Source: an uncultured Verrucomicrobiae bacterium
GTDB taxonomy: Bacteria > Verrucomicrobiota > Verrucomicrobiia > Palsa-1439
Reading direction: 5' to 3'
Length of the DNA stretch: 64,000 nucleotides
Assembly (NCBI GenBank): GCA_963812605.1
Contig: CAWEWF010000001.1
Coordinates: forward strand, 1-64,000
The translations under genes were made by a program, and so were the position numbers. Shown piece after piece: positions 1 through 17,233 of this stretch. The notes under the pieces are model-generated. The model had not been told where the DNA came from. It did not search any database and saw nothing but the letters and a program-made list of their open reading frames with translations. How positions within the stretch are numbered: position 1 is the stretch's first letter; each line of letters opens with the position of its first letter.

Positions 1-24
1 GTTCGAGCCCCGTCACTCCCGCCA
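1..24 (+). tRNA. 3' end of tRNA-Asp (T-loop to CCA), cut by the window edge; intact gene or att copy
   Basis: GTTCGAGCCCCGTCACTCCCGCCA. Asp identity is taken from the longer copy at 4207, which carries the CT-GTC-AC anticodon loop. Confidence 0.65.
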
Positions 25-328
25 ATTTGCTATTACTACTTTTGGCGTCATTCCGCGACAAATCGCGTGTTTTGCCTTTATTTTCGCCAACTCCTAGTTC
101 TCCGGTTCCGTGACTTGCGGTGTCAGGAAATGACACTTCTCCCCCGTTTGCGACCGCTAAATGTGGGGACTGGTGTGGAGCTACTTGAGAGGCGGCGTTC
201 AGGTAGCTTGGCAATGACTGAATGGCTGCGAGCGTACCTAGCTGGCTCTCGTCAATGTAGGTCTCGTCCGTCAGCACGCATCATAGGAAGGCGAAAGGGG
301 TGCGAAACCAAAAAATCCTAGCCGCGCC

Positions 329-450
329 CTAACTCCTTGTGGTTCTCTTGGCGGAGTTGATGATTGCCAGCACTGCTGCTCGAATTTCAGTGGAAAGCGT
401 GTCCCATGAGTCTATGACTGTTTGAAGTTCGGGGGGTGTGCCTTTTTTGT
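329..450 (-). CDS. short 'W-x-x-L-(P/S)' helical ORF, island-end associated; start uncertain
   Basis: ELQTVIDSWDTLSTEIRAAVLAIIN resembles NLHKIINSWPRLPAHIKGAILTLV at about 17770-17870. Confidence 0.35.
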
Positions 451-509
451 GTGGTGATAGGTGCGATTTGCTGGTGTGTTTCTCTACATTTTGGGCGGAA
501 AATGCAGCA

Positions 510-543
510 GAGGTTGCGGGTTCGAGCCCCGTCACTCCCGCCA
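510..543 (+). repeat. tRNA-Asp 3' fragment (att-like direct repeat)
   Basis: GAGGTTGCGGGTTCGAGCCCCGTCACTCCCGCCA, identical to 1-24 over the overlap; no D arm or anticodon arm. Confidence 0.85.
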
Positions 544-659
544 ATTTCTTAATGCGGATCTTCTTCTGTTTTCCATTGATCCGGCGGCTTTTCTGGGCGG
601 CGGGACTGTCGCCCTGCTCCGACTGCTACGCAGTCAAAATATAGGCAAAAATGACCCAT

Positions 660-687
660 CGGGTGAGTGTCAGGGTGATAGTTTTTT
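660..687. repeat. non-coding module A, copy 1 (CGGGTGAGTGTCAGGGTGATAGTTT)
   Basis: near-identical copies at 8756, 16518 and 17009. Confidence 0.85.
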
Positions 688-839
688 TGGGAATTCTGGG
701 GGTGGGGTACTGGGCGGTGGGATGCGGGCGGGGGATTTGGCTGGAAGATGGGGGGATCAATAGCAACAAAGCGGTAGTTCCAAAATGGGTCAGGAATTGT
801 AATCGACCAGTCGGCTGGAATATGGGAGAAGTCGAGGTA

Positions 840-1166
840 ATGAACGACGCGCCACTCTACGCATCGAAACGCACAGCCAAAAGTCTCTGGCAGCAATATC
901 GCATCTACCGTGACCGGCTGGAACTGCAATCGTGGGTTCTCCTCCATACAGTTGTTCTGCCGACAGATGCAATCCGCTCTATTGAAGTCCGCCCGTCCAT
1001 TTTTGGCGGCCGGAAAGGCTTCACGTGGGGAATAAAAATCGACAATTGCGATTTGTGCCGTCACGTTTTGCTGACGAAAACAACCGGACTTTTCAAACGC
1101 ATTGGCTTTTCGCCCGACGAACCGGAAAAGTTCGTTGAGATTTGCAAATCAGTTTTGCCAAGTTGA
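840..1166 (+). CDS. hypothetical protein (possibly PH-like)
   Basis: ATG840 follows GAGG. Globular-looking 108 aa. The ORF extension to 651 runs through repeat module A. Confidence 0.55.
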   Translation: MNDAPLYASKRTAKSLWQQYRIYRDRLELQSWVLLHTVVLPTDAIRSIEVRPSIFGGRKGFTWGIKIDNCDLCRHVLLTKTTGLFKRIGFSPDEPEKFVEICKSVLPS

Positions 1167-1818
1167 CTGTTCATTGCGGCAGAAAGCAATGGCGGGCGAC
1201 GGGATTAGTTGGATTGAACTATCTGGCTTTTCGACTTTGGCATCAACTCTCGGCAAATCGCTTTGCAGTGCCATGACCATTGTCTATTCCGCCGCAGAGA
1301 CAACAAATGGAGAACAACCCGCCCTGTTGGTCTTTTCGCCAGCTTGACTTGCGTAAAATGCTTCACTCTCAGCAAGCTTAGCGTGAATGTTCCAAATTGC
1401 ACTTGCGAAGACCGCTTTACGTAAACGGCGGGGCAATGGGCGGAACTGCGGCGGGATGGGGGCGGGCTCGAATTGGCAGGTTGAATGCTCCCTCTAGGAG
1501 CCATGGACGACAAGGGGATCAGCAATCAAAGGCATCTACCCGATTCAAAAAGTTGTCGGACGGGGTATCGGGGGCAATCTCTGGACATTTCGTATTGTCT
1601 GATGGAAAACCCAGACGATTGCGAGCATGCGGTCTGTTTTGGTTGTAGCGTCTTCTGTCGCCATCCGGATCGGCGTAGCTTCGAGAAGACAGATCGGCGT
1701 TGACGGGAGCGTGGCTTCAAGGTGGAACTGGCAGCGGGATGCGGGCGGGGGGACTGGACGGCTGGAATCGGTGGTAAGATCAAGGCGATTGGCATTCTGG
1801 TTGCTACTTACTGCAATC

Positions 1819-2250
1819 ATGCCATCCACAGACCTGTCAGAGTTGACGAAGCCTTACGCCAACATTTACGAATTTAAGACGCTCCTCTTGGTGGACGATG
1901 ATCGCCAGTTGGCGGAGACCCTCCAGTGGATTCTGGCTAGCGAGAATTTCCTCGTGGAGGTTGCTCATAATGGTAATGAAGCGATGGCGAAGATTTCATC
2001 CAACCATTACGATGCGGTTATCTGCGACATCATGATGCCGCAGATGAAAGGCGACGATTTTTTTCGCCAAGCCACAGAGATTCGACCGGAATTTAAAAGG
2101 CGCTTCATCTTCATGACCGGCTTCGGCAATGATCCAGAAGTTCGGTGCTTCTTGGCTAAGTCCGGCGTGAAATGCCTGAGCAAACCATTTCCCGTCAAGA
2201 AACTGATCGAATGCGTCAGAGAACTGCTCGCCGCTGCGACCGCCTCCTAG
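1819..2250 (+). CDS. single-domain response regulator (REC), copy 1
   Basis: LLLVDDD, ICDIMMP, FMTG and LSKPF motifs; paralog at 8882. Confidence 0.9.
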   Translation: MPSTDLSELTKPYANIYEFKTLLLVDDDRQLAETLQWILASENFLVEVAHNGNEAMAKISSNHYDAVICDIMMPQMKGDDFFRQATEIRPEFKRRFIFMTGFGNDPEVRCFLAKSGVKCLSKPFPVKKLIECVRELLAAATAS

Positions 2251-2410
2251 GCGTCATTTCCCCCCTTCTGACCTGTCCTTGCTTAGCGAAGCAATAAAAG
2301 AGAACCGCTCCCCGCCGTTCACTCCTCACCCGCGTCAACCGACGACAATCCGTGCCAAGGGGGTGGTCTCAGTTGCGATAAGGCAGGGTTATCGGCGGGG
2401 GAAAAGAAAA

Positions 2411-2494
2411 GAGAGCCGAGGCTCAACTCTTAGCAAACCCAGCCGACCCAATTCGGCTGAATAATCCTACCCAGAGAGAGCGTCTCGACCCTCC
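2411..2494 (-). ncRNA. candidate end-paired small RNA (module B, copy 1)
   Basis: Minus strand: TTGCCA-16-TACGTT promoter (2527-2500), then GGAGGGUCGAGACGCUC...GAGCCUCGGCUCUC followed by a U tract. Differences from copy 2 become G-U pairs. Confidence 0.45.
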
Positions 2495-2691
2495 GCTGCA
2501 ACGTAAGCGTGATTGGGGGAATGGCAACCGATAGTTTTTGGGGGCCGGTTTCAGTTGGGAACCGGCGGCGGGATGCGGGCGGGGAGAACAGAATCGCTTG
2601 GTAGATAAGATCGCGGCTAGAATCGGCGCCTGCGCAGGATGCTGACTGATGTAGTGGCTGTCGTAAGGATTAGCGCAGGAATATCTGATGA

Positions 2692-3051
2692 TCAGAACAA
2701 GAATTCCACGTTATGAAGTGCCACGATTAACGAGACAACGCCAACCAAGAGAAAAACCTGCCAGTGTGTATCATCGGCATACTGTGTGCGCACGACCCGC
2801 TTCGCCAACTGGCATCCCAGAAAAATTACGGGCGTGGTGATCAGTGCTTCGTAAGTAATCAAACCCGCTTGATGCCCGAGCAAGTATAAAACATCCGCCA
2901 CGAATGGTTTGGCCTCGACCGCTTGGCCTTGACTGATCGCGACCCATGTTGTGGCAAAATCCAAGCCTCGGCCCAGCGCACAGACTGTCATTGCCAGTGT
3001 GCTTCCGTTGGCTTTGCCAACGACCGGTCCCAGTACCCCTACAGTCGCCAT
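2692..3051 (-). CDS. small membrane protein (DUF5658-like), copy 1
   Basis: Three hydrophobic segments and an LDFATT..G.AVEAKP motif; paralog at 8158 with the frame preserved. Confidence 0.7.
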   Translation of the reverse strand: MATVGVLGPVVGKANGSTLAMTVCALGRGLDFATTWVAISQGQAVEAKPFVADVLYLLGHQAGLITYEALITTPVIFLGCQLAKRVVRTQYADDTHWQVFLLVGVVSLIVALHNVEFLF

Positions 3052-3346
3052 ACCCAGAATTGTCCACCCATCTCGCCCGACCCCTATTCAGATTTAATTC
3101 GTATCAGATTACCGTATTTTTGGCAACAACAATCCGACTGATAAGGCTTGTTTTTCCTGCCTTCTATGGCTACGCCGCGAGAGTTGCGAGTTAGCTCATC
3201 ATGTGAGGAAAAGCATATGAAAGGGTACCTGGAGAAACTTGTACGCCAGCTCGGCAAGCAATCAGGCCAGAGTTTAGTCGAGTATTCCAGCGGCTAATTC
3301 CCTCCATTGGCTTGCTTCGGAGTCAGATCGGCAGCAGAATTTCACC

Positions 3347-4072
3347 ATGCCTGCGCACAAACAGACCCCCTACACAGACCTGGCTCGATATTATGACCTG
3401 ATTTATTCGTGGAAGGACTACCAGAAGGAAGCCGCAACCATTCAGCGCCTGATCGTGAAATATAAGAGGTCGAAAGGAAACGACTTGCTTGAAGTCGCTT
3501 GCGGGACGGGCCGGCATATACAGTATCTGAAAGGTAATTTTCGAGCGCTGGGAATCGACAGAAGCGTTGGAATGCTGGGAGTCGCCCGCAAGAACGTCAA
3601 AGGCGCTCTCTTCAAGCGAGCGGATATGGTCACGCTCAATCTAGGGAAGGAGTTCGACGTGATCACCTGCCTTTTCGGCTCGATCGGATATGTAAAGACC
3701 TATACCGACCTGAAACGAACATTGCAGAATTTTGGACGCCACTTGAAGAAGGGCGGCGTGGTCATCATTGAACCGTGGCTGACCAAGGAAATGTTCAAAA
3801 AAGGTCATCCGAGCATGACAACGTATGACGGCAACGACATCAAGATTGCCCGGCTGTGCGTTTCCAAAGTTCGGGGCAGCAGCTCCGTCATGGATATGAA
3901 TTATCTCGTCGCCGAGAGAAACAAAGCGGTGAAGCATTTTATTGATCGCCATGAACTCGGGATGTTTGAATCGCAACGGATTCTTGAGTTCATGCGACAG
4001 GCGGGACTGCGAGCAAAGTTCATTCGGAACGGTTTTACGGACGGACGGGGGCTTTATGTTGGGGTCAAGTAG
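3347..4072 (+). CDS. class I SAM-dependent methyltransferase (TylM1/DesVI-like N-methyltransferase family)
   Basis: LLEVACGTGRH motif I, FDVITCLFGSIGY, YYDLIYSWKDY. Confidence 0.9.
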   Translation: MPAHKQTPYTDLARYYDLIYSWKDYQKEAATIQRLIVKYKRSKGNDLLEVACGTGRHIQYLKGNFRALGIDRSVGMLGVARKNVKGALFKRADMVTLNLGKEFDVITCLFGSIGYVKTYTDLKRTLQNFGRHLKKGGVVIIEPWLTKEMFKKGHPSMTTYDGNDIKIARLCVSKVRGSSSVMDMNYLVAERNKAVKHFIDRHELGMFESQRILEFMRQAGLRAKFIRNGFTDGRGLYVGVK

Positions 4073-4206
4073 AAGAAACGTTTCGGAAAATGACGGCTAG
4101 TCCCTGGCGGCGAGGACTGGCGGCAAGGTCATACCCGCCGTAGGTCGGGTGAGTGCGGCGGGTGGATCCGGCGGCACAACCTCATGGTAGTCAAAAACGA
4201 TTTCGA

Positions 4207-4254
4207 GCCCTGTCACGGCGGAGGTTGCGGGTTCGAGCCCCGTCACTTCCGCCA
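4207..4254 (+). repeat. tRNA-Asp 3' half (anticodon loop to CCA), att-like repeat
   Basis: GCCCTGTCACGGCGGAGGTTGCGGGTTCGAGCCCCGTCACTTCCGCCA; GTC anticodon; 5' half absent. Confidence 0.85.
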
Positions 4255-4322
4255 ATTCCTTTCTTGCGATAATCCGGGACTGCCCTAACGCTTATCATGT
4301 CCACGTCGTTCCGCCCACCCAC

Positions 4323-5625
4323 TTAGCTGGTTGAGAATTGTTGCCGCTCCTGGCTTCCATCCAGCGGCGTGACGGGGTCGATGAAAAGCCAGCAGGCAGC
4401 GCCGATCAGGTAAATTCCCGCGGCGACCCAGAAGCAGATCGTCCAATTGTTGCCGGTGAATTTCAGAATCTGGGCCACGACGAGGGAGCCGACCGCGCCG
4501 CCGAGATTACCCATCATGTTCATGCTGCCGGAGAGCGAACCCGCATACTTGCCGCCAACGTCCATGCAGGCGCCCCAGCCGCTGGGCATCGCGCAATCGT
4601 TGGCGAAGCCGGCCAGTCCGAGGGCGATCATCGCGAGCGTCGGATTCTGAATGTGGGTTGATAGGACCAACATGCTGGCGGCGACAACCAGACCCAGCAG
4701 TGCGGGAATTCGTCGCGCGTGACGCACCGACCCGGTCCAGCGCGCGAGGCGGTGGACAAGCACGCCCACGAATAAACAGGCCAGCCCACCGAAGAAGAGC
4801 GGCAACCCGGACAAAAACGCGCTTTTCGCCAATTGCACACCGCGGGCTTCCTTCAGATAAGTGGGCAGCCACGTGATGTAGAAGTACCAGCCATAACTCA
4901 TGCAAAAGTATTGGAGCCAAAGCAACCACACCGACCGGCTGCGAAGAAATCGTTTCCAAGGGACGTCGCCGTGACCCACGGCGTTCACCTCGGCGCCGTC
5001 GAGCAACGCGAGTTCCGCTGGGTTCACGGAACGATGGTCGCGCGGATGGTCGCGAAACCAGAAATAGAACACGACGGCCCACACCACTCCCAGCGTGCCG
5101 AAAAGAAGAAACGCCTGGCGCCAGTTGAGAATCTGTCATCACCCAGAACACGAGCAGCGGCGTGAACGCCCCGCCCCAGCGCGCGCTCAACCACATGATG
5201 CCCTGCGCGCGGACGCGCTCATTCCAAGGAAGCCAGATGGTGAAGATTTTGGTGAGATTCGGAAAACAGCCGGCTTCGCCCGCGCCAAACAAGAACCGGC
5301 ACACGATCATGGAAGCCAGGTTCCACGCCCAGCCCGTCGCCGCGGTGAAGAATGACCACATGACAACGACACGCATGAGCACACCGCGCGGACCGCGACG
5401 GTCGCCGAGCCAGCCCGCGGGGATTTCGAAGATCGCATAGGCCAGCGTGAACGCCGAGAAGACCCAGCTCATCTGTTCCTTGGTGAAACCAAGGTCGCGT
5501 TGAATATCGTTGGCCGACTGCGAAATACAGACGCGGTCGAAGTAGGTAATCACGGCCAGCGTGACGGCGAAGACGATGACCCAATGCCGCGCCCGCGTCG
5601 GTTGAATGGCGGAGGGTGGTGTCAT
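4323..5625 (-). CDS. MFS transporter, anion:cation symporter (sugar-acid) family; frameshift near 5130
   Basis: ITYFDRVCIS, GWLGDRRGPR and RFLFGAGEAG motifs; two ORFs (4507-5625 and 4323-5087) join into one. Confidence 0.9.
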
Positions 5626-5637
5626 GGCGGGCCGAGC

Positions 5638-6632
5638 TTAATTGACCACGTTGTAGGGCGGTTGCCCCAACAATACGCGCCGGCAGTTTTGGCTGCCTTT
5701 GACGCGCATATCGAGCATTCCTTCCTCGGAATAGAACGCCGAGTGCGGGTTGATGATCAAGCGACCGTGGGCGGGATGTTTCGGATCGCGCCACGCCGCG
5801 ATGAGCGGATGGTCCGGCGCTGGCGGCTCCGTTTCCAACACATCAAGGGCCGCGCCGCGCAAATGCCCGGAGGTAATCCCGTCGAGAATCGCCAGCACAT
5901 CGACCACGCCGCCCCGCGACGTGTTCACCACAAAGGAACCGGGCGGCATCTTCCCGATCGTGTCGCGGTTGATCAGGTGTTTTGTTTCCGCGGTAAGCGG
6001 ACAGTGAAGGCTCACGACGTGGGCTTGGGCGAGAAGTTCATCCAGGGTCTCCGCGGCGCGAATGCCCAGCGACTTGTCGCGGCCCTGGGGCGCGAATGGA
6101 TCGTAATAAACCACCTCCATGCCCAGCGCCTTGGCGCGCAAGGCAGTGGCCGTGCCGATGCGCCCGATGCCCACGATCCCGAACACTCGCCCGCGCAACC
6201 GGTGCAAAGGCTGCGCTTGGGTATGACTCCACGGGCCGGTCCCAGTTGCAAACGGTCGTTCAGATAATGAATGCCTCGCAGCAACGCCAGCGTCATGCCG
6301 ATGGCGGAGTCCGCGACCTCTTCGGTCCCGTAGTCCGGCACGTTCGCCACATGGATGCCGCGCGCCCGGGCCGCCACATGATCCACGTTGTCGAATCCCA
6401 CCCCGCAGCGAACAATGAATCGGCAATTCTTCAACCGTTCAATCGTCCGCGCGCCAATTTGGGTGCGATGATAAATCATGATGGCGTCGGCGTCCTCGAT
6501 TCGGCCCACGAGGTCGTCCTCGGAAGACGCATTCAGCGCCACCACATCGGCCAGGTCGCCCAGGATCCGGCGCTCGTGATCGAGTGGCTCGGTGATGAAA
6601 TCGGTGACAACAACTTTCGCGCGCTGGGTCAT
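5638..6632 (-). CDS. D-isomer-specific 2-hydroxyacid dehydrogenase (CtBP-like); frameshift near 6240
   Basis: RCGVGFDNVD, GIVGIGRIG, VSLHCPLT, NTSRG, INPHSAFYS. Confidence 0.9.
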
Positions 6633-6733
6633 GGCTGAATGATACCCAGCCTTGCATTTTAGTGCGGGTCGAGGCAAGCCAACAAAATAGTTTGGTCTTT
6701 CAAATCCGCGCGGTGAATCGTATATCCGACCCT

Positions 6734-7894
6734 GTGAACGCGCAGTTCAACGTGCCCTCCACGATCCTTGTCGCCGGCGGCGCCAGCCAGCCGCTCGCCG
6801 CTCAAGCCGCACGGCTCGGCGGACGGCGCGCGCTGCTCGTCACCGATGCGACGATGGTCGCCAGCGGACTGGCGCAACGCTGCGTCGACCAACTGGCCGC
6901 CGCCAACATCCCGGCCACCGTCTTCTCCGGCGTGAAACCGGACCCGACCGATGAAAACGTCCGCGACGGACTCGCGTTGTTGCGCAAAACCAACTGCGAT
7001 CTCGTGATTGGCCTCGGCGGCGGCAGCCCGATGGATGCCGCGAAAGTCATCGCCGTCGCCGCCACGAACGACGCACCGCTTCGCGAGTTTGCGGGTTATC
7101 ATCGCATCCGCGCGCCGGCCTGCCGCTGGTGTGCATTCCGACGACGGCCCGGCACCGGCAGCGAAGTGACCAAGGTCGCCGTCATCACGGACACCGAGCG
7201 CGACGTGAAAATGATGATGCTCGACGTTCACCTGCTGGCGCGCGTGGCGCTGGTGGACTTCGAATTGAGCCTGACGATGCCGGCCCCACTCACCGCGCAC
7301 GTCGGCGTGGACACGCTCACCCATGGGATCGAAGCCTTTGTGTCAAAGAAGGCGAATCCGCTGACCGACCCGCTGGCGCTGGAGTGCATCCGCCTGACGG
7401 CAGCGAATCTCTTCACTGCCTGGGAGGAGCCGGGGAACCGCCCGGCGCACGAGGCGATGATGCTCGCGGCCTGCCTTGGCGGGATGGCGTTTGCCAACAG
7501 CAGCGTTTGTCTCGTTCACGGCATGAGCCGTCCCATCGGCGCGATGTTTCACCTGGCGCACGGATTGTCAAACGCGCTGCTCTTGCCAGCACTCACGCGC
7601 TGGTCGCTGCCCGGAGCCGTGGCGCGCTATGCACAGATCGCCCGGTTGGTCGGCGCCGCCGCTAACGGCGCACCGGATGAGACGGCCGCGGCGAGTCTGC
7701 CCGATTATTTGGAAAAGTTGAATGCGCGCCTGGGCATCGGCCGTCTGCGCGATTTCATCAAGATGGATCCGGTTGCCTTCGAGCAGAAGTTACCGGCCAT
7801 GGCGGACGCGGCGCTGGCTTCCGGCAGCCCGCAGAACAATCCGGTTGTCCCCACGGCCGATGAAATAATCGAACTCTATCGCCAGGCTTGGTGA
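6734..7894 (+). CDS. iron-containing alcohol dehydrogenase
   Basis: GGGSPMDAAK, GTGSEVT, DTLTHGIE, HGMS and HGLSNA motifs; compensating indels near 7110-7150. Confidence 0.92.
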   Translation: MNAQFNVPSTILVAGGASQPLAAQAARLGGRRALLVTDATMVASGLAQRCVDQLAAANIPATVFSGVKPDPTDENVRDGLALLRKTNCDLVIGLGGGSPMDAAKVIAVAATNDAPLREFAGYHRIRAPACRWCAFRRRPGTGSEVTKVAVITDTERDVKMMMLDVHLLARVALVDFELSLTMPAPLTAHVGVDTLTHGIEAFVSKKANPLTDPLALECIRLTAANLFTAWEEPGNRPAHEAMMLAACLGGMAFANSSVCLVHGMSRPIGAMFHLAHGLSNALLLPALTRWSLPGAVARYAQIARLVGAAANGAPDETAAASLPDYLEKLNARLGIGRLRDFIKMDPVAFEQKLPAMADAALASGSPQNNPVVPTADEIIELYRQAW

Positions 7895-7915
7895 GGCGGT
7901 ATTCAACAATGGAAA

Positions 7916-7986
7916 AGGTCGCGGGCTCGAGCCCCGGCCCTCGACTCACCACGGCATCGTATGCCTGTTTGCAGGAATAGCAACCG
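7916..7986. repeat. chimeric tRNA-T-arm-like fragment fused to a truncated module B
   Basis: AGGTCGCGGGCTCGAGCCCC (tRNA-like) joined to CTCGACTCACCA...ATCGTA-16-TAGCAA (module B promoter end). Confidence 0.6.
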
Positions 7987-8157
7987 AAATGGCGAGGGGC
8001 AACGGCGGCAAGAGCATTGGCGGGAACTGACGGCGGATGCGGGCGGGATAAGAGAGAAATCGCTTGGTAGATAAGATCGCGGCTAGAATCGGCGCCTGCG
8101 TAGGATGCTGACTGATGTAGTGGCTGTCGTGAGGACTAGCGCAGGAATATCTGATGA

Positions 8158-8517
8158 TCAGAACAAGAATTCCACATTATGAAGTGCCACGATTAACGAG
8201 ACGACGCCAACCAAGAGAAAAACCTGCCAGTGTGTATCATCGGCATACTGTGTGCGCACGACCCGCTTCGCCAACTGGCATCCAAGAAAAATTACGGGCG
8301 TGGTGATCAGTGCTTCGTAAGTAATCAAACCCGCTTGATGCCCGAGCAAGCATAAAACATCCGCCACGAATGGTTTGGCCTCGACCGCCTGGCCTTGACT
8401 GATCGCGACCCATGTTGTGGCAAAATCCAACCCTCGGCCTAGCGCACAGACTGTCATTGCCAGTGTGCTTCCGTTGGCTTTGCCAACGACCTGTCCCAGT
8501 ACCCCTGCCGTCGCCAT
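8158..8517 (-). CDS. small membrane protein (DUF5658-like), copy 2
   Basis: near-identical to 2692-3051. Confidence 0.7.
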   Translation of the reverse strand: MATAGVLGQVVGKANGSTLAMTVCALGRGLDFATTWVAISQGQAVEAKPFVADVLCLLGHQAGLITYEALITTPVIFLGCQLAKRVVRTQYADDTHWQVFLLVGVVSLIVALHNVEFLF

Positions 8518-8723
8518 ACCCAGAATTGTCCACCCATCTCGCCCGACCCCTATTCAGATTTAATTCGTATCAGACTACCGTATTTTTGGCAACAACAATC
8601 CGACTGATAAGGCTTGTTTTTCCTGCCTTCCATGGCTACGCCGCGACAGTTGATAAGTAATTCAGATTCGGCGGCTTGTGCCCATTTGTTTCGCCCCCAG
8701 TTTTGCCCCGTCCCATAGTCAAA

Positions 8724-8783
8724 ACACTCACCCAGAATGGGCGTTTTGCCCCTGTCGGGTGAGTGTCAGGGTGATACTTTTTT
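8724..8783. repeat. module A copy 2, with inverted repeat ACACTCACCC/GGGTGAGTGT
   Basis: IR arms at 8724-8733 and 8757-8766; inner GGGC/GCCC. Confidence 0.85.
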
Positions 8784-8881
8784 GGGGTGATGTCGGGGGC
8801 GGGTTAAGGCAGGAACTGTGCGGCGAGATTCGGCGGGGAGAATTGGGGCGATTGGCATTGTGGCTGCTACTTACCGCAATC

Positions 8882-9313
8882 ATGCCATCCACCGACCTGT
8901 CAGACTTGAGGAAGCCTTACGCGAACATTTACGAATTCAAAACGCTCCTTCTGGTGGACGATGATCGCCAGTTGGCGGAGACCCTCCAGTGGATTCTGGC
9001 TAGTGAGAACTTCCTTGTGGAGGTTGCTCATAATGGTAATGAAGCAATGGCGAAAATTTCAGCCAACCATTACGATGCGGTCGTCTGTGACATCATGATG
9101 CCGCAGATGAAGGGCGACGATTTTTTCCGCCAAGCCACTGAGATTCGACCGGAATTCAAAAATCGCTTCATCTTCATGACCGGCTTTGGCAACGATCCAG
9201 AAGTCCGGTGCTTCCTGGCCAGGTCCGGCGTGAAGTGCCTAAGCAAACCATTCCCCGTCAAGAAACTCATCGAATGCGTCAGAGAACTGCTCGCCGCTCC
9301 GACCCCCTCCTAG
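8882..9313 (+). CDS. single-domain response regulator (REC), copy 2
   Basis: paralog of 1819-2250; differences mostly synonymous. Confidence 0.9.
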   Translation: MPSTDLSDLRKPYANIYEFKTLLLVDDDRQLAETLQWILASENFLVEVAHNGNEAMAKISANHYDAVVCDIMMPQMKGDDFFRQATEIRPEFKNRFIFMTGFGNDPEVRCFLARSGVKCLSKPFPVKKLIECVRELLAAPTPS

Positions 9314-9430
9314 GCGTCATTTTTTCCCCTTCTGACCTGTTCGTGCTGTCTGCCTAGGCTACTTACCCCCTGTGGTTAAGGAGCTTGGAAGGCAGTCCAA
9401 GCTGGCAAGCTGATTGCTTCTTGCAAGAGT

Positions 9431-9820
9431 ATGGATCGCAGCAAAAAAGAATGCGTTCTTGTCATTGACGATGAGAAAGTAGTTCTCGAAATGATCAAGG
9501 ACGCGTTGGAATGCTATGCGTTCAGGGTGTATACGGCTTCCAGCGCCAAAGAAGCCATCGCGGTGTTTCGGGATAACCAGCACGACATTGGCATGGTCCT
9601 GTTGGATTTCTTGCTACCGGACATGTCGGGCGAATGGATTTTTGAGAATCTGCGGTCCCTCGATCCGGACATACAGGTTGTCCTATTGACCGGTTGCGAA
9701 GAATCGGTAGCTGATAGAATGCTCAAAAGGGGTCTGCGGGGCTACCTTCAAAAGCCTTTTGATTTACCAGAGCTTGTTGAGAGAGTTCGCGACGCAATCA
9801 ACTCCCCGGTACTTGCTTAA
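9431..9820 (+). CDS. single-domain response regulator (REC)
   Basis: LVIDDE, LLDFLLPDMSG, LLTG, LQKPF. Confidence 0.9.
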   Translation: MDRSKKECVLVIDDEKVVLEMIKDALECYAFRVYTASSAKEAIAVFRDNQHDIGMVLLDFLLPDMSGEWIFENLRSLDPDIQVVLLTGCEESVADRMLKRGLRGYLQKPFDLPELVERVRDAINSPVLA

Positions 9821-9946
9821 CCCGTAGAACAATCCCTAGCCTGATCTGCGTAACTTCGAGGAAGCCACCTCCGCCCTGATGCCTCTTCCGTAATCTTCGT
9901 CCGCCCATATCCAATCGGGCAGGATTTGGGCGACGGGAAATGAAAA

Positions 9947-10047
9947 GGAGAGTCGAGGCTCGAATCCCGATTACACCCCCCAAACCGCATTCTAAATGCG
10001 ACCTCTCGCCTTTGAGATTTCCCAGCGAGAGAGCGTCTCGACTCTCC
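9947..10047 (-). ncRNA. candidate end-paired small RNA (module B, copy 2)
   Basis: Minus strand: TTGCTA-16-TACGTT (10080-10053), then GGAGAGUCGAGACGCUC...GAGCCUCGACUCUCC-UUUU, with internal hairpins UCUCGC/GCGAGA and CGCAUU/AAUGCG. Confidence 0.45.
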
Positions 10048-10368
10048 ACTGCAACGTAAGCCTGATCGCAGGAATAGCAACCGATAGTTTCGCGGCAATT
10101 TTTGGCGGCAAGAATTGGTGGATGGGATTCGGGAGTCGGACTGGCAGGGGTGTTGGCGATCAAGCCAGACGACGGGATGTTGGTTCTTAGCGCTGCATTA
10201 TAAGCAACACGATTGCACAGGCGGTCGCTGAACCTAGCAAGTACGCCAGTCCGCGGCGCATCCGCAGGAATATGTAGCCCAACGGTTTAGCCAATAAACA
10301 TTTCTCCCGCCATGCGCTTCTGGCATGGAGAACGCTTCACGGAGCTTGGCTAAAATGTTGGATATAGC

Positions 10369-12347
10369 TTGAACCCGACCAAGGAACTCCTCAATAGAGA
10401 CGTGTATATCGAGGGCGCCGAACCGAATGCGTTGGCTGCTCCAGAATTGGAATCTTTGCCGACAGCGAGCAAGAGCAATGGCGCTGCAGATTCGAACCCT
10501 CCGGTCACCGAAACGCAAGCGGTGACGCCGCGAAGGAAGCGAAGGATGCGAAAGTCCTGGCGCCTTCTGTTACTCACCGCGTTGGTTCTTGTAGGATCAT
10601 TGTACGGACTGATCACCCTGGGCCTCAGTGCATGGGACAGTTTCATTCACGAACAAGAAGCCCATGCGGCAACCACTCGCGCCCAGCAGATACTCATCGC
10701 GCTGCCATCGCTGGCAAGTAGTCTGCACGAGGCGGAAAGCGGCGCGCGTGGATTTGCCATTTCGGGCAAACAATTGCACCTCGATCAATATTATGGCGCT
10801 ACAAAAGCGATCCAGCCTCAACTCGATGAACTCCAACGGATCTTGCGGGACGATTCAGCCGCATTGAAACAATACCGGGGACTCGCACCCCTTATCACCG
10901 CCCATTTGGCCGTACTGAAAGAAATGGTCGACTTGGGTAACAAGAATGTCTTTCGCGCCGTGGGACAACGAGGCTTGGCCGATCAGGGTTATGAGATGAT
11001 GCAAAATATCTCCGCCAGGCTTCAGGCGATGGAGCAATCGGCGCGAGCGCGCCTTGCCGGGCCATCAAACATCGCCCTTCAATATGCTCACATTGCCAGG
11101 GTGGCATTGCTGGAAGGGGGAGCATTGGCATGCGTTGTCCTGTTTCTCGGCAGTATTAGCACGTATTGGCTGGTGATCGAAAACGGCAAGATGGAAGAGA
11201 AACTAAATGGCTTCCTCGAGTCGTCTCCGGATGCCATCGTCATCGTCAATAAGGAAGGCAAAATCGTCGTCAGCAATTCGCATACAGAACGATTACTGGG
11301 TTACACACCGCAGGAACTTGCGGGCCAGACTGTGGCCATCCTTGTGTCAGAGCGTTATCGCAAAGTCTACTTGCAACAGTACGCGGTTTTCTTTGCGAAT
11401 CGCGGTGATCAAATGACAACGACGAGCCTGGAACTGAGCGCCATCCACAAAGACGGACGAGAGTTTCCAATCGAAATTTGCATGAAACCGCTGGAGACAG
11501 AACAGGGGGTTCTGGTTACCAGCGCCATTCGGGACATCAGCCACCGGAAGCAGACCGAACAACAAGTTAGTCGATTGAATGAGCGACTCGAACAACGGGC
11601 AGCCGAACTGGAAGCCGCCAATAAAGAACTGGAAGCATTCAGCTATTCTGTTTCCCACGACCTCCGTTCGCCGTTGCACAGCATCGATGGCTTTAGCCAG
11701 GTGTTGCTTGAGGATTATGCAGACCGGTTGGACACGAGGGTCAGGAACATCTCAAGCATGTGCGCAGCAGTTGTCAGCATATGGGAGAGATTATTGACGC
11801 GTTGTTGGCACTCTCCAAGATGATGCGCACCGAAATGTTCCGCCAAAAGTCGATCTAAGCGCATTCGCCTGTCAGATTGCCGACGAACTCAAGGCCAATG
11901 CGCCCGACCGCGCGGTGGATTTTGTCATCGCCAGTAATCTCAACGCCGATGCTGACCCACACCTTCTCCGGGTCGTGCTGGAGAATCTCCTGAACAATGC
12001 CTGGAAGTTTACTTCGAAACAACCTCGTGCGCGAATCGAAGTGGGATCATTACTGCAGTCAAACGGGGAGCAGGTTTTCTATGTTCGCGACGATGGCGCC
12101 GGCTTTGATATGGAGCGTGCGCAAAAACTATTCTCCCCCTTTAAGCGTTTACATAAGGCGAGTGACTTCCAGGGAACCGGGCATCGGTCTGGCAACGGTC
12201 CAGCGCGTCATCGCGCGACATGGTGGTAAAATTTGGGCATCGGCCGCTGTCGACCATGGCGCAACGTTTTGTTTCACACTTGCGCCGACGAACAAAGTTG
12301 GAGCATTGGCTGCGGTCTCCAATCTGACTGCAGGGGAAAATAATTGA
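10369..12347 (+). CDS. sensor histidine kinase (CHASE3-PAS-HisKA-HATPase); frameshifted; start may be 10546
   Basis: ESGARGF (CHASE3), ESSPDAI (PAS), [32 protein letters not shown]. Confidence 0.9.
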
Positions 12348-14005
12348 ATGAGCGAACCTTTACGAGTCTTGTTTGTAGACGATTCGGAAAAAGACGTTTT
12401 TCTCCTGTTGCGCCAACTAAGGAAAGCCGGCTTTGAACCCCAGCACAAGCGCGTGGATGATGCCGTCAGCCTGCGAACTGCGCTTCAAAGTGAGGAATGG
12501 CAAATCGTCATCAGCGATTTTCATATGCCGAGTTTCGATGGGCTAATGGCGCTACAGGTTTTCAAGGAGGCGGGGCTCGATATTCCATTTATTTTGGTAT
12601 CCGCTACAGTCGGCGAGGAGACTGCGGTCCTGGCCATGAAACAGGGAGCTCGATGATTACGTCATGAAAAGCAACCTGGCGCGCCTTGCTCCAGTGGTCC
12701 AGCGAGAGTTGCGCGAAGCGGAAATACGCGCCCAACAACGTCGCACCCAACTGGCATTGCAACAAAGGGAGGAACAGCTACGGCAGGCGCAAAAAATGGA
12801 AGCTATTGGCCGCTCTGGCTGCCGGCGCCGCCCATGATTTCAAAAATGCCCTGACTGTCATCCTCGGTCAATCCCAATTGCTGATGAGTGAGAAGGACTT
12901 GAGCGCGTTGCAACGATCGAAGCTCGAACATATTCAAAATGCCACCGACAAGGCGCATTCTCTTATTGTTCGCCTCCTGGCCTTCAGTCGCAAACAGGAA
13001 CTGAAACCGCAAGCTCTGAATCTTGGCGCCGCAGTCAACGCGATGAAGCCGATGCTGACGCCATTGCTGGGTAACAGTATTCAACTTGTTGTGCTTCCTG
13101 AACCCAATCTTGGATTGTGTGAGGTAGACGCCAACAGCCTGGAACAGGTCATTATCAACCTTGTTATTAATGCGCGCGATGCCATGCCCAACGGGGGGAC
13201 CGTCACTGTCGGCACGGCCAACCTGGCGGTAACCGAAGAAAATGCCATCCGCCATGCCGGAGTCCCGCAGGGCGATTACATACTGCTCACGGTCACTGAC
13301 TCGGGTACGGGCATGACAGAGGAAACGCGCAAACACCTGTTCGAGCCGTTCTTTACCACAAAAGATTCCGGTAAGGGCACCGGTCTGGGATTATCCACCT
13401 GCTATGGAACCATCCACCAAAGCGGCGGCTACATCCTGGTTCACAGTGAACTGGGCAAGGGCTCCTCGTTCCGGGTTTACCTGCCTCGAATAAAGTCCAA
13501 TGCGATAAATCCATCGACCGACACCGACCTTGCTATCAGTGGGGAGCGCCAGGAAGAAGCCTCTTTGGAAACATCCACTCCCGGGTCATCTGATCCTTCT
13601 TGGAGCTCCGGGACAGTGCTCCTGGCAGAAGACGAACTGGTGATCCGAGAACTCATGGCTTCGGTATTGCGGGAAATGGGCTGCACCGTTCTTGAGGCGG
13701 AAAACGGTGAACAAGCTCTTAGCCTCATGGAGCATTCCAGTGGACAAGGAATCGATCTGCTCTTGACCGACATTGTCATGCCAGTGATGGGAGGCAAGGA
13801 ATTGGCTTATAAGGTCGGATCGCGCTTCCCCGCAACCAAGATCCTTTTCTGTTCCGCTTACCCTGAAAAGCTGGGTGTTCGCAACGGGATGTTCGACAAG
13901 CAGATTCCCTTTCTCCAAAAGCCGGTGACTACGAACGCACTAAAATTCAAGGTGCGAGAAGTTATGGGCGATGTACAAGCAACGGCGGTAATAGAACAGA
14001 ACTAG
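12348..14005 (+). CDS. hybrid response regulator/histidine kinase (REC-HisKA-HATPase-REC); frameshifted
   Basis: N-terminal REC, AHDFKNAL, NLVINARDAM, FFTTK..GKGTGLGL, C-terminal REC. Confidence 0.9.
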
Positions 14006-17008: not shown

Positions 17009-17055
17009 CGGGTGAGTGTCAGGGTGATAGTTCTTTGGGGGCAGGGGATGCGGGC
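17009..17055. repeat. module A copy 4 plus GGGATGCGGGC
   Basis: CGGGTGAGTGTCAGGGTGATAGTT. Confidence 0.8.
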
Positions 17056-17233
17056 AGCTACCTTAACCAATTGAGCTACACCCCTGGACGGCATTTCGGA
17101 TCAGGCGGCGGGAATTGGCGGGGCGGATTTGGGAGGGCGGAGAGTCGAGTTGGAACCGCTTGATTCAACGGGAAACGCTACAGCATAATAGGAAAAGCGG
17201 AAATGCTCGAACACTATAGTAAGGTTAAATACA

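Follow-up and report, generated by a model that had tools for sequence, protein, structure and literature searches.

The 64,000-nt stretch at the start of contig CAWEWF010000001.1 from an uncultured Verrucomicrobiae bacterium (hereafter the window) carries on its minus strand a promoter-like module that recurs three times and that leads, in two of the copies, into a putative small RNA whose 5' and 3' ends are complementary. A 44-nt composite pattern, TTGCYA-N16-TACGWT-N5-GGWGRGTCGAG, has three exact matches in the window, all on the minus strand (2527..2484, 7983..7940 and 10080..10037), compared with none in 100 dinucleotide-preserving shuffles of the window (0 expected against 3 found). This agrees with an earlier sequence-only reading of the same DNA, which had reported the repeat and had described two full copies with paired ends, an AC bulge, a GCUC/GAGC helix and a U tract; all of these are present in X1 (10047..9947, 101 nt) and Y1 (2494..2410, 85 nt), the two complete, end-paired copies. 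In X1, the promoter module (10048..10091, minus strand; recognized by the pattern and by nhmmer, E 1.4e-14) consists of a −35-like TTGCTA (10080-10075), a conserved 16-nt spacer and a −10-like TACGTT (10058-10053), with 5 nt (GCAGT) between the −10-like box and the first G of the RNA. The RNA (9947..10047; class A, L1 type) opens with the 5' arm GGAGAGTCGAG (10047-10037), which is complementary to the 3' arm CTCGACTCTCC (9957-9947) and with it makes helix P1. Above P1 and the AC bulge lie P2a (GCUC, 10034-10031, with GAGC, 9961-9958), P2b (UCUCG, 10030-10026, with CGGGA, 9969-9965) and the P4 hairpin (CGCAUU/AAUGCG, 10000-9986). The T tract TTTTCATTTCC follows (9936..9946) and would supply the U tail of an intrinsic terminator. 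The fold has an energy of −45.9 kcal/mol (z −4.0) that none of 200 shuffles equals, and an orthologue of 91% identity is found in a congener (L017).

Y1 is laid out in the same way. Its promoter module (2495..2538, minus strand; nhmmer E 2.3e-10) has TTGCCA (2527-2522), the spacer, TACGTT (2505-2500) and 5 nt; its RNA (2410..2494; class A, Y type) closes P1 between GGAGGGTCGAG (2494-2484) and CTCGGCTCTCT (2420-2410) with three G.U pairs, inside which the AC bulge and GCUC/GAGC recur as in X1, and the T tract TTTCTTTTCC comes next (2400..2409). The Y1 fold is rod-like, with an apical hairpin CAGCCGA/UCGGCUG, and at −45.2 kcal/mol (z −5.4) it too is equaled by none of 200 shuffles. Y1 has relatives in L085, L086, L144, L155 and L183. 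The third copy, at 7983..7940, is truncated: the promoter module (7940..7989, minus strand; TTGCTA at 7983-7978, TACGAT at 7961-7956; nhmmer E 3.8e-07) ends with the 5' arm GGTGAGTCGAG (7950-7940) and has neither RNA body nor 3' arm. Their place is taken by an unrelated, foreign hairpin, GGCCGGGGCUCGAGCCCGCGACC, and its UUUU (7912..7939, minus strand), and the fold here is no better than that of shuffles (z −0.59; 54 of 200). Read on the plus strand, this hairpin is 61% like a tRNA-Asp 3' fragment that the window repeats at 1-28, 507-550 and 4218-4261.

The module is not confined to the window. An nhmmer promoter profile built from 58 family instances finds exactly seven modules at E < 1 in the 4.17-Mb genome: those of X1, Y1 and the truncated copy; three on contig 7 (C7), belonging to X2 (C7:26743-26854), to the short form Z (C7:29091-29142) and to a small protein gene under the family promoter (about 27636); and that of Y2 on contig 6 (C6:102676-102761), the paralogue of Y1. 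When window positions 1-13000 are compared with the genome by BLAST, the unit of promoter and RNA (about 130 bp) recurs alone, as C6:102639-102770 matches only window 2403-2530 and C7:26733-26861 matches only window 9937-10054. Since the unit is conserved where its neighbors are not, it is gene-like, and its flanking genes have separate histories. By BLASTN, 28 of the 45 genomes of the GTDB family to which this genome belongs have a match, as do all 17 genomes of the genus (with at most 12 matches listed per genome and at most 18 candidates scored). In a sample of the class, a short-class query has a match in 29 of 401 genomes, namely the genome itself, 27 of 44 in family f1 and the single genome of f3, and no other family in that sample has one. 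In a phylum sample of 400 other genomes, none of them from f1, no short element bracketed by P1 is found, and the genome under study is the sole match among the 401. The RNA family is thus essentially absent elsewhere in the class and phylum.

Related modules are common in soil and peat metagenomes. A scan for the two arms at a distance of 62-92 nt returned at least 122 stretches; the 80 loci taken from them yielded 72 unique sequences, about 60 of which are family members by reading; low-complexity GAGAGTCGAG repeats and unrelated palindromes account for the remaining 12. Across all fetched loci nhmmer gives 142 hits, equal to 130 unique promoter modules; behind 90 of these lies a 3' arm with at least 10 of its 11 positions paired, and behind the other 40 there is none such. 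With genomes and metagenomes taken together, 133 unique RNAs share the helix GGAGAGUCGAG/CUCGACUCUCC and the U tract, and their interiors fall into 18 similarity clusters, the biggest with 57, 33, 10, 6, 6 and 5 members. The earlier proposal of a multicopy family of small-RNA genes with a constant scaffold (promoter, P1, P2 and U tract) and varying interiors is therefore borne out. Its companion, that the genes are carried by islands, is not: the copies occupy ordinary intergenic stretches of the chromosome, frequently as tandem arrays of RNAs, and no match was obtained in viral contigs (searched with a short pattern), phages or plasmids. The segmental duplications around the window copies explain the impression of islands.

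Comparison of the stems indicates on which strand the pairing matters. Where the Y1 stem departs from that of X1, the changes give G.U pairs on the minus strand only (G1.U, G5.U and U7.G), a point already made from the two copies and now extended to the family. In P1 of 89 RNAs, the 979 cells of the alignment comprise 915 Watson-Crick pairs, 52 G.U, 5 A.C and 7 others; the excess of G.U fits an RNA made on the promoter strand, as a DNA palindrome would show G.T about as often as A.C, although the RNAs were selected for 10 or more pairs out of 11 and G.U was admitted as a pair, which tilts the count slightly toward G.U over A.C. This asymmetry bears on a DNA-level explanation, in which the elements would be a dispersed promoter-terminator cassette, a miniature inverted-repeat transposable element (MITE)-like element or an attC-type recombination site whose arms act as DNA. 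Such a view is encouraged by the inverted 11-bp arms with variable content between them, by the many copies per genome, by the setting of the window copies amid segmental duplications and tRNA-Asp 3' fragments, and by the one copy that is cut at its 5' arm by foreign DNA. The strand-asymmetric mismatches are nevertheless not expected from DNA pairing; the inner helices are conserved; orthologues of each class are found across species and genera; mobile replicons gave no match, as noted; and each copy comes with a promoter of its own, which cassettes lack. By direct reading, the arms GGAGAGTCGAG/CTCGACTCTCC are without the attC core site GTTRRRY, so that an integron attC was rejected. No integrase domain is present among the 16 neighboring open reading frames (ORFs) scanned with Pfam (window 549-14005), a scan that did not extend to a genome-wide search for intI, and no transposase is found among the neighbors scanned. 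A retron msr-msd was likewise rejected, as there is no reverse transcriptase among the 16 ORFs or among recurrent neighbors in relatives. We regard action of the arms as DNA as very improbable.

The structural model for class A comprises P1, P2a (GCUC/GAGC), P2b (UCUCG/CGAGA) and P4 (an AGCCGC/GCGGCU-type hairpin). When P1, P2 and P4 are laid on 36 class-A sequences, 98.3% of 920 cells pair, compared with 30-44% when the partners are slid by 1-3 columns. Double-sided changes occur at 4 of 26 class-A pairs (7 cells), and the pair count is reached by 13 of 500 shuffles and the cell count by 1 of 500; the sequences are related by descent, and these shuffle counts thus overstate the support. For the long classes together, the RNAalifold consensus is P1 and P2, with double changes at 4 of 16 pairs. 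For the short class it is P1 only, although an inner helix is supported by an exchange of UUGCA/UGCAG for UUGCU/AGCAG. Since the scaffold hardly varies (7 of the 15 P1/P2a pairs are constant), covariation is modest, and the strand asymmetry is the stronger argument for RNA.

The interiors behave differently at the two scales. From the window alone the X1 and Y1 interiors had been taken as unrelated sequences, each with its own folds. The folds are there (CAGCCGA/UCGGCUG in Y1, UCUCGC/GCGAGA and CGCAUU/AAUGCG in X1), but the two interiors are homologous: both RNAs belong to the 57-member cluster and can be aligned through intermediates (the 94-nt L2 type; L144, L155 and L183; alignment A3). What varies between the window interiors is therefore a matter of indels in a single RNA. 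Genuine differences appear at the level of the family, where the 18 clusters are not mutually alignable. Unpaired UGGG, GGGG(G)U and GUAAU motifs are retained in class A and missing from the other classes, and the S class is rich in AG and GCAG motifs, part of them within a covarying helix.

Conservation of the promoter spans −45 to +11, with TTGC, the T and A of the −10 box and the TTG before +1 nearly invariant. These features point to a sigma-70-type promoter with a −35 TTGC(T/A)(A/T), a partly conserved spacer of 16-17 nt and a −10 TAnnnT, a call that we base on conservation and position, not on strength. Two promoter types, TTGCTA-N16-TACGTT and TTGCAT-N17-TATCAT/TATTAT, stand before orthologous RNA bodies (the second before X2, L044, L021, L022, L126, L127 and others), and both keep the −10 box at 5-6 nt before GGAGAG. 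Transcription would start at the G of GGAGAGUCGAG, 6-7 nt after the −10 box. The complementary CUCGACUCUCC, emerging 24-90 nt later, would close the 11-bp helix P1; in the class seen in the window, P2 would form as a second helix above the small bulge; and the interior would carry class-specific hairpins. P1 and the U tract would act as an intrinsic terminator, to release products of 46-112 nt with both ends locked in a helix.

The promoter and the first 11 nt are not exclusive to RNA genes, and in relatives the box is found at a set distance ahead of RNA and protein genes alike. Promoter and first 11 nt also precede small ORFs with ordinary lengths of 5' untranslated region (UTR): an 84-85-aa protein with no Pfam match (ATG at +17 to +22), which is found in the genome under study as well (on C7); a 97-aa PurA-like protein (ATG at +57 to +68; PF04845, 32.9 bits against a cut-off of 25); a 64-aa glycine-zipper peptide (ATG at +60; 20.6 bits, below the cut-off); and a 67-75-aa helix-turn-helix (HTH)-like protein (ATG at +81/82; a weak GntR-like match). 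The RNAs would thus belong to a co-regulated set that includes a PurA-like single-strand nucleic-acid binder, a glycine-zipper membrane peptide and two proteins of no assigned role. By analogy, the composition of the set (small nucleic-acid binders, a glycine-zipper peptide and several RNAs) resembles that of a stress-type regulon. In these mRNA leaders +1 to +11 is kept without any 3' arm, exactly in 11 of 40 and closely in most others. The constancy of the P1 sequence is hence most simply a promoter-linked constraint on the 5' arm, and the 3' arm would then have to complement an arm fixed by the promoter.

The same observations bear on a more ambitious proposal, in which invariant P1 is the binding handle of a dedicated protein, comparable to the pairing of Y RNA and Ro60, and the interiors serve a single family of ribonucleoproteins (RNPs) as interchangeable modules with an effector or guide function. 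In this modular RNP system the terminal helix and promoter would form a universal cassette for unrelated RNA interiors, with the PurA-like protein as partner. If true, each bacterium would have 5-20 "plug-in" RNAs, co-regulated with PurA-like single-strand nucleic-acid binders, in a bacterial analogue of the Y RNA or snRNA gene families. The proposal draws on the constancy of P1 across 18 clusters that cannot be aligned with each other, on the tandem RNA genes, and on a PurA-like paralogue under the same promoter (in a degenerate copy) that lies on the same strand 165-380 nt downstream of 8 of 19 class-A genes in relatives. The 5' arm is, however, equally conserved in the mRNA leaders that have no 3' arm, and so the P1 sequence is explicable without a helix-binding protein. 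TROVE/Ro60 is found in 1 of 45 family genomes. PurA-like genes are present in 41 of the 45, with or without the RNA, and hence do not track it, and none of the four class-A genes of the genome under study has a PurA-like neighbor. We consider a modular RNP system unlikely. The genome encodes three RRM proteins and one PurA-like protein; one of the three RRM_1 matches (C6:120437-120640, minus strand) has an in-frame TGA.

Downstream of the 3' arm, a TTT occurs within 10 nt in 81 of 89 family RNAs, and P1 probably terminates transcription. With its G+C-rich stem and U tract the element is like a plain intrinsic terminator. Two features set it apart. Its "loop" of 24-90 nt (in one outlier 129 nt) is both structured and conserved in its own right, and the stem starts 5-6 nt after the conserved −10 box, so that, unlike a plain terminator, it is not the end of a gene lying upstream. 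Lengths of the P1-closed RNAs range over 46-112 nt, a single outlier having 151 nt. A simple terminator scan reports only sub-hairpins in the two copies (2430-2412, with its tail, in Y1 and 9970-9953 in X1), and its 9 sites in the region compare with 8.5 expected.

A terminator so close to a promoter could also be a conditional one. In this alternative the element would be a cis-acting 5' leader or attenuator, in which P1 and the U tract are switched by a ligand or protein bound to the interior. The downstream context could be judged for 87 of the 90 P1-closed RNAs, the other three having too little flank. A candidate ORF lies within 200 nt downstream in 16 of the 87; some members stand 36-80 nt before small ORFs on the same strand (L033 and L043, before the HTH-like protein of 67-75 aa), and this minority looks leader-like. 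The 5' UTR of the PurA-like gene is similar to the short, "leader-like" class, and CUCUCG of the L1 type has two exclusive partners, GCGAGAG or the 3' CGAGA. Set against this, 51 of the 87, both window copies included, have neither an ORF on the same strand nor a module downstream, a further 20 precede another module within 300 nt (tandem arrays, for example L3 then S), and the 16 candidate ORFs probably include several spurious ones. X1 and Y1 converge on plus-strand genes with REC domains (9431-9820 and 1627-2250, respectively), which makes them stand-alone genes. A cis-acting leader is a distinctly improbable account of the family as a whole.

Together these results argue that X1, Y1 and their relatives are transcribed, end-paired small-RNA genes of a new, lineage-specific family, a reading to which we give a probability of roughly three in four and which is not tied to any one mode of action. 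Several points weigh against it, among them the selection effect on G.U, the modest covariation and the shared descent of the class-A sequences mentioned above. The promoter box fits the Escherichia coli consensus poorly (about 7 of 12 positions by our own count), and a consensus scan of 2300-10200 reports no promoter-like site. In many copies of the S class 3-4 nt separate the stem from the T run, a spacing less than ideal for a terminator. Sequence, structure, conservation and distribution are direct observations, but the promoter, the start site, termination and with them the size of the RNA are what we infer from comparison. No gene for Hfq, ProQ or CsrA was found in the genome, which is 89.96% complete. 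Finally, a target search with the interiors of the five complete copies found at best 15 nt of exact match elsewhere in the genome, and 14 of 20 shuffled sets did as well or better; the antisense, immunity or guide role once suggested for the interiors thus finds no backing in this search.

As for the mode of action, we tentatively rank first a trans-acting, protein-binding RNA, possibly one that binds the PurA-like paralogue. A short-seed base-pairing regulator comes second, as a possible but somewhat doubtful alternative; a cis-acting leader would be an improbable role, and one for some members, with other modes left for the rest. For the S class, TRAP-like binding to NAG repeats was considered. 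AG is about twofold enriched (7.1 against 3.8 per loop), and 46% of AG spacings are 5-6 nt, compared with 17% ± 4% in shuffles. The candidate was rejected, as the sequences are related, the motifs lie partly in a helix with compensatory change, and no TRAP gene was found in the genome at the same completeness. A link to two-component systems was set aside as well: REC and kinase genes flank the window copies, yet they are not recurrent neighbors elsewhere. The domains that Pfam finds in the 16 ORFs are REC, histidine kinase, methyltransferase, major facilitator superfamily (MFS), dehydrogenase and Fe-alcohol dehydrogenase.

Comparison with known RNAs places the family outside the catalogued ones, as the sequence-only reading had supposed. 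At gathering score, Rfam 15 has no match in the 64-kb window. In E-value mode the best matches are E 0.84 on X1 and E 0.9 on Y1, with 11-16 bits against cut-offs of 40-140; these weak matches are to animal and plant microRNA, long non-coding RNA and small nucleolar RNA families and to two bacterial ones (DUF3085 RNA and ctRNA_pGA1). The 20 related loci (72,228 bases) give three tRNAs and nothing else, and 14 loci spanning all classes give no match at E ≤ 0.5. ARAGORN calls no tRNA or tmRNA gene in the window, nor do the elements match an Rfam tRNA or tmRNA model. Direct reading also disposes of a T arm at UUCGAGCC, as this stretch arises from P2a plus P1 and its flanks do not pair as a T stem. 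No publication on this RNA family was found, as judged from literature listings.

The closest analogies are partial. Bacterial Y RNAs, the partners of Ro60/Rsr in RNPs, are similar in size (about 100 nt), in ending in a sequence-conserved stem, in their variable inner modules and in their tandem paralogues. Y RNAs have a bulged Ro-binding helix, whereas P1 here is a perfect duplex without it; no Rfam Y RNA family is among the matches listed, those of E-value mode included; and identity with Y RNAs was rejected on the distribution of TROVE (1 of 45 family genomes, against 28 of 45 for the RNA). The sole TROVE match, on contig 14 of the genome under study (C14:753613-754305; L077/L078), is a 284-aa frame with two domain matches (37 and 31.5 bits), perhaps a Ro60-like gene that was truncated or came by horizontal transfer. 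C14 is without any promoter module, and the frame is not adjacent to the RNAs. Qrr1-5, RsmX/Y/Z and the streptococcal csRNAs are sibling families of small RNAs under one regulon promoter. Like them, the present genes come as several paralogues per genome, sometimes in tandem, each with its own conserved promoter box and a terminator of Rho-independent type. Unlike them, their constant part is an end-to-end helix plus promoter and not a seed or protein-binding motif, the interiors form 18 clusters, the promoter and first 11 nt also drive protein genes, Hfq, ProQ and CsrA were not found here, and the distribution is confined to one Verrucomicrobial family. OmrA and OmrB have conserved 5' and 3' ends and a divergent center, as here, but their conserved 5' end is a free seed, while here the 5' end is paired with the 3' end.

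This is therefore a new RNA family of a known general kind, and what is unusual is its modular build and the sharing of its promoter with protein genes. To our knowledge, almost nothing is known of RNA regulators in Verrucomicrobia. The carriers are uncultured soil and peat organisms, for which the family offers RNA genes that look abundant, at 5-20 per genome. Thanks to constant P1 the RNAs can readily be located and captured; the shared, recognizable promoter also marks a small protein regulon and so gives a handle on the whole regulatory circuit, and its consensus could be used to define the regulon in metagenomes. A constant terminal helix around non-homologous interiors is an unusual architecture that bears on the origin of small-RNA genes; one possible route is that the promoter is duplicated along with its first 11 nt and a complementary terminator arm evolves afterwards. 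As the family is missing from Rfam, it should be added there.

The surroundings of the window copies have a history of their own. Three direct copies of a tRNA-Asp(GTC) 3' end (T arm plus acceptor) lie on the plus strand at 1-34, 507-550 and 4218-4261, and the contig (C1) begins inside the first. An intact tRNA-Asp gene is located at about C8:246689-246766 and a related one at about C7:53509-53587. The arrangement has the look of att scars from tandem integration of elements at tRNA-Asp, with no integrase seen. Between 4262 and 7915 the G+C content is raised (0.60-0.65 compared with about 0.52-0.54 around it); this block contains a truncated MFS transporter, a 2-hydroxyacid dehydrogenase split in two frames and an Fe-alcohol dehydrogenase, and it has a tRNA-Asp 3' fragment at its left border and, at its right, the 61%-like hairpin that adjoins the truncated RNA gene. 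Two segmental duplications (2557-3186 with 8022-8652, and 1750-2283 with 8812-9347; 96% and 89.6% identity, respectively) carry a 119-aa membrane-like ORF without a Pfam match and a REC-domain gene, in an order that differs between the sites.

Elsewhere in the window, a lone exact 3' arm, CTCGACTCTCC, at 17140-17150 (minus strand) has the usual CCGCC-rich flank and no upstream 5' arm or promoter, and is probably a relic copy. Just downstream of it (about 17050-17085, minus strand) is a sequence like the 5' half of a tRNA that ARAGORN does not call. In relatives, L082, L083 and L098 carry a further RNA-like unit of about 135 nt behind the family promoter. Its first 11 nt are degenerate, it has a terminator of its own (GGAGCUCAGCCG...CGGCUGAGCUCC with a U tract), and Rfam has no match for it. 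The flanks of all modules, such as 2540-2600, 9900-9945 and 10090-10150 in the window, are rich in short CCGCC/CCCGCC motifs (GGCGG on the other strand) every 8-12 nt.

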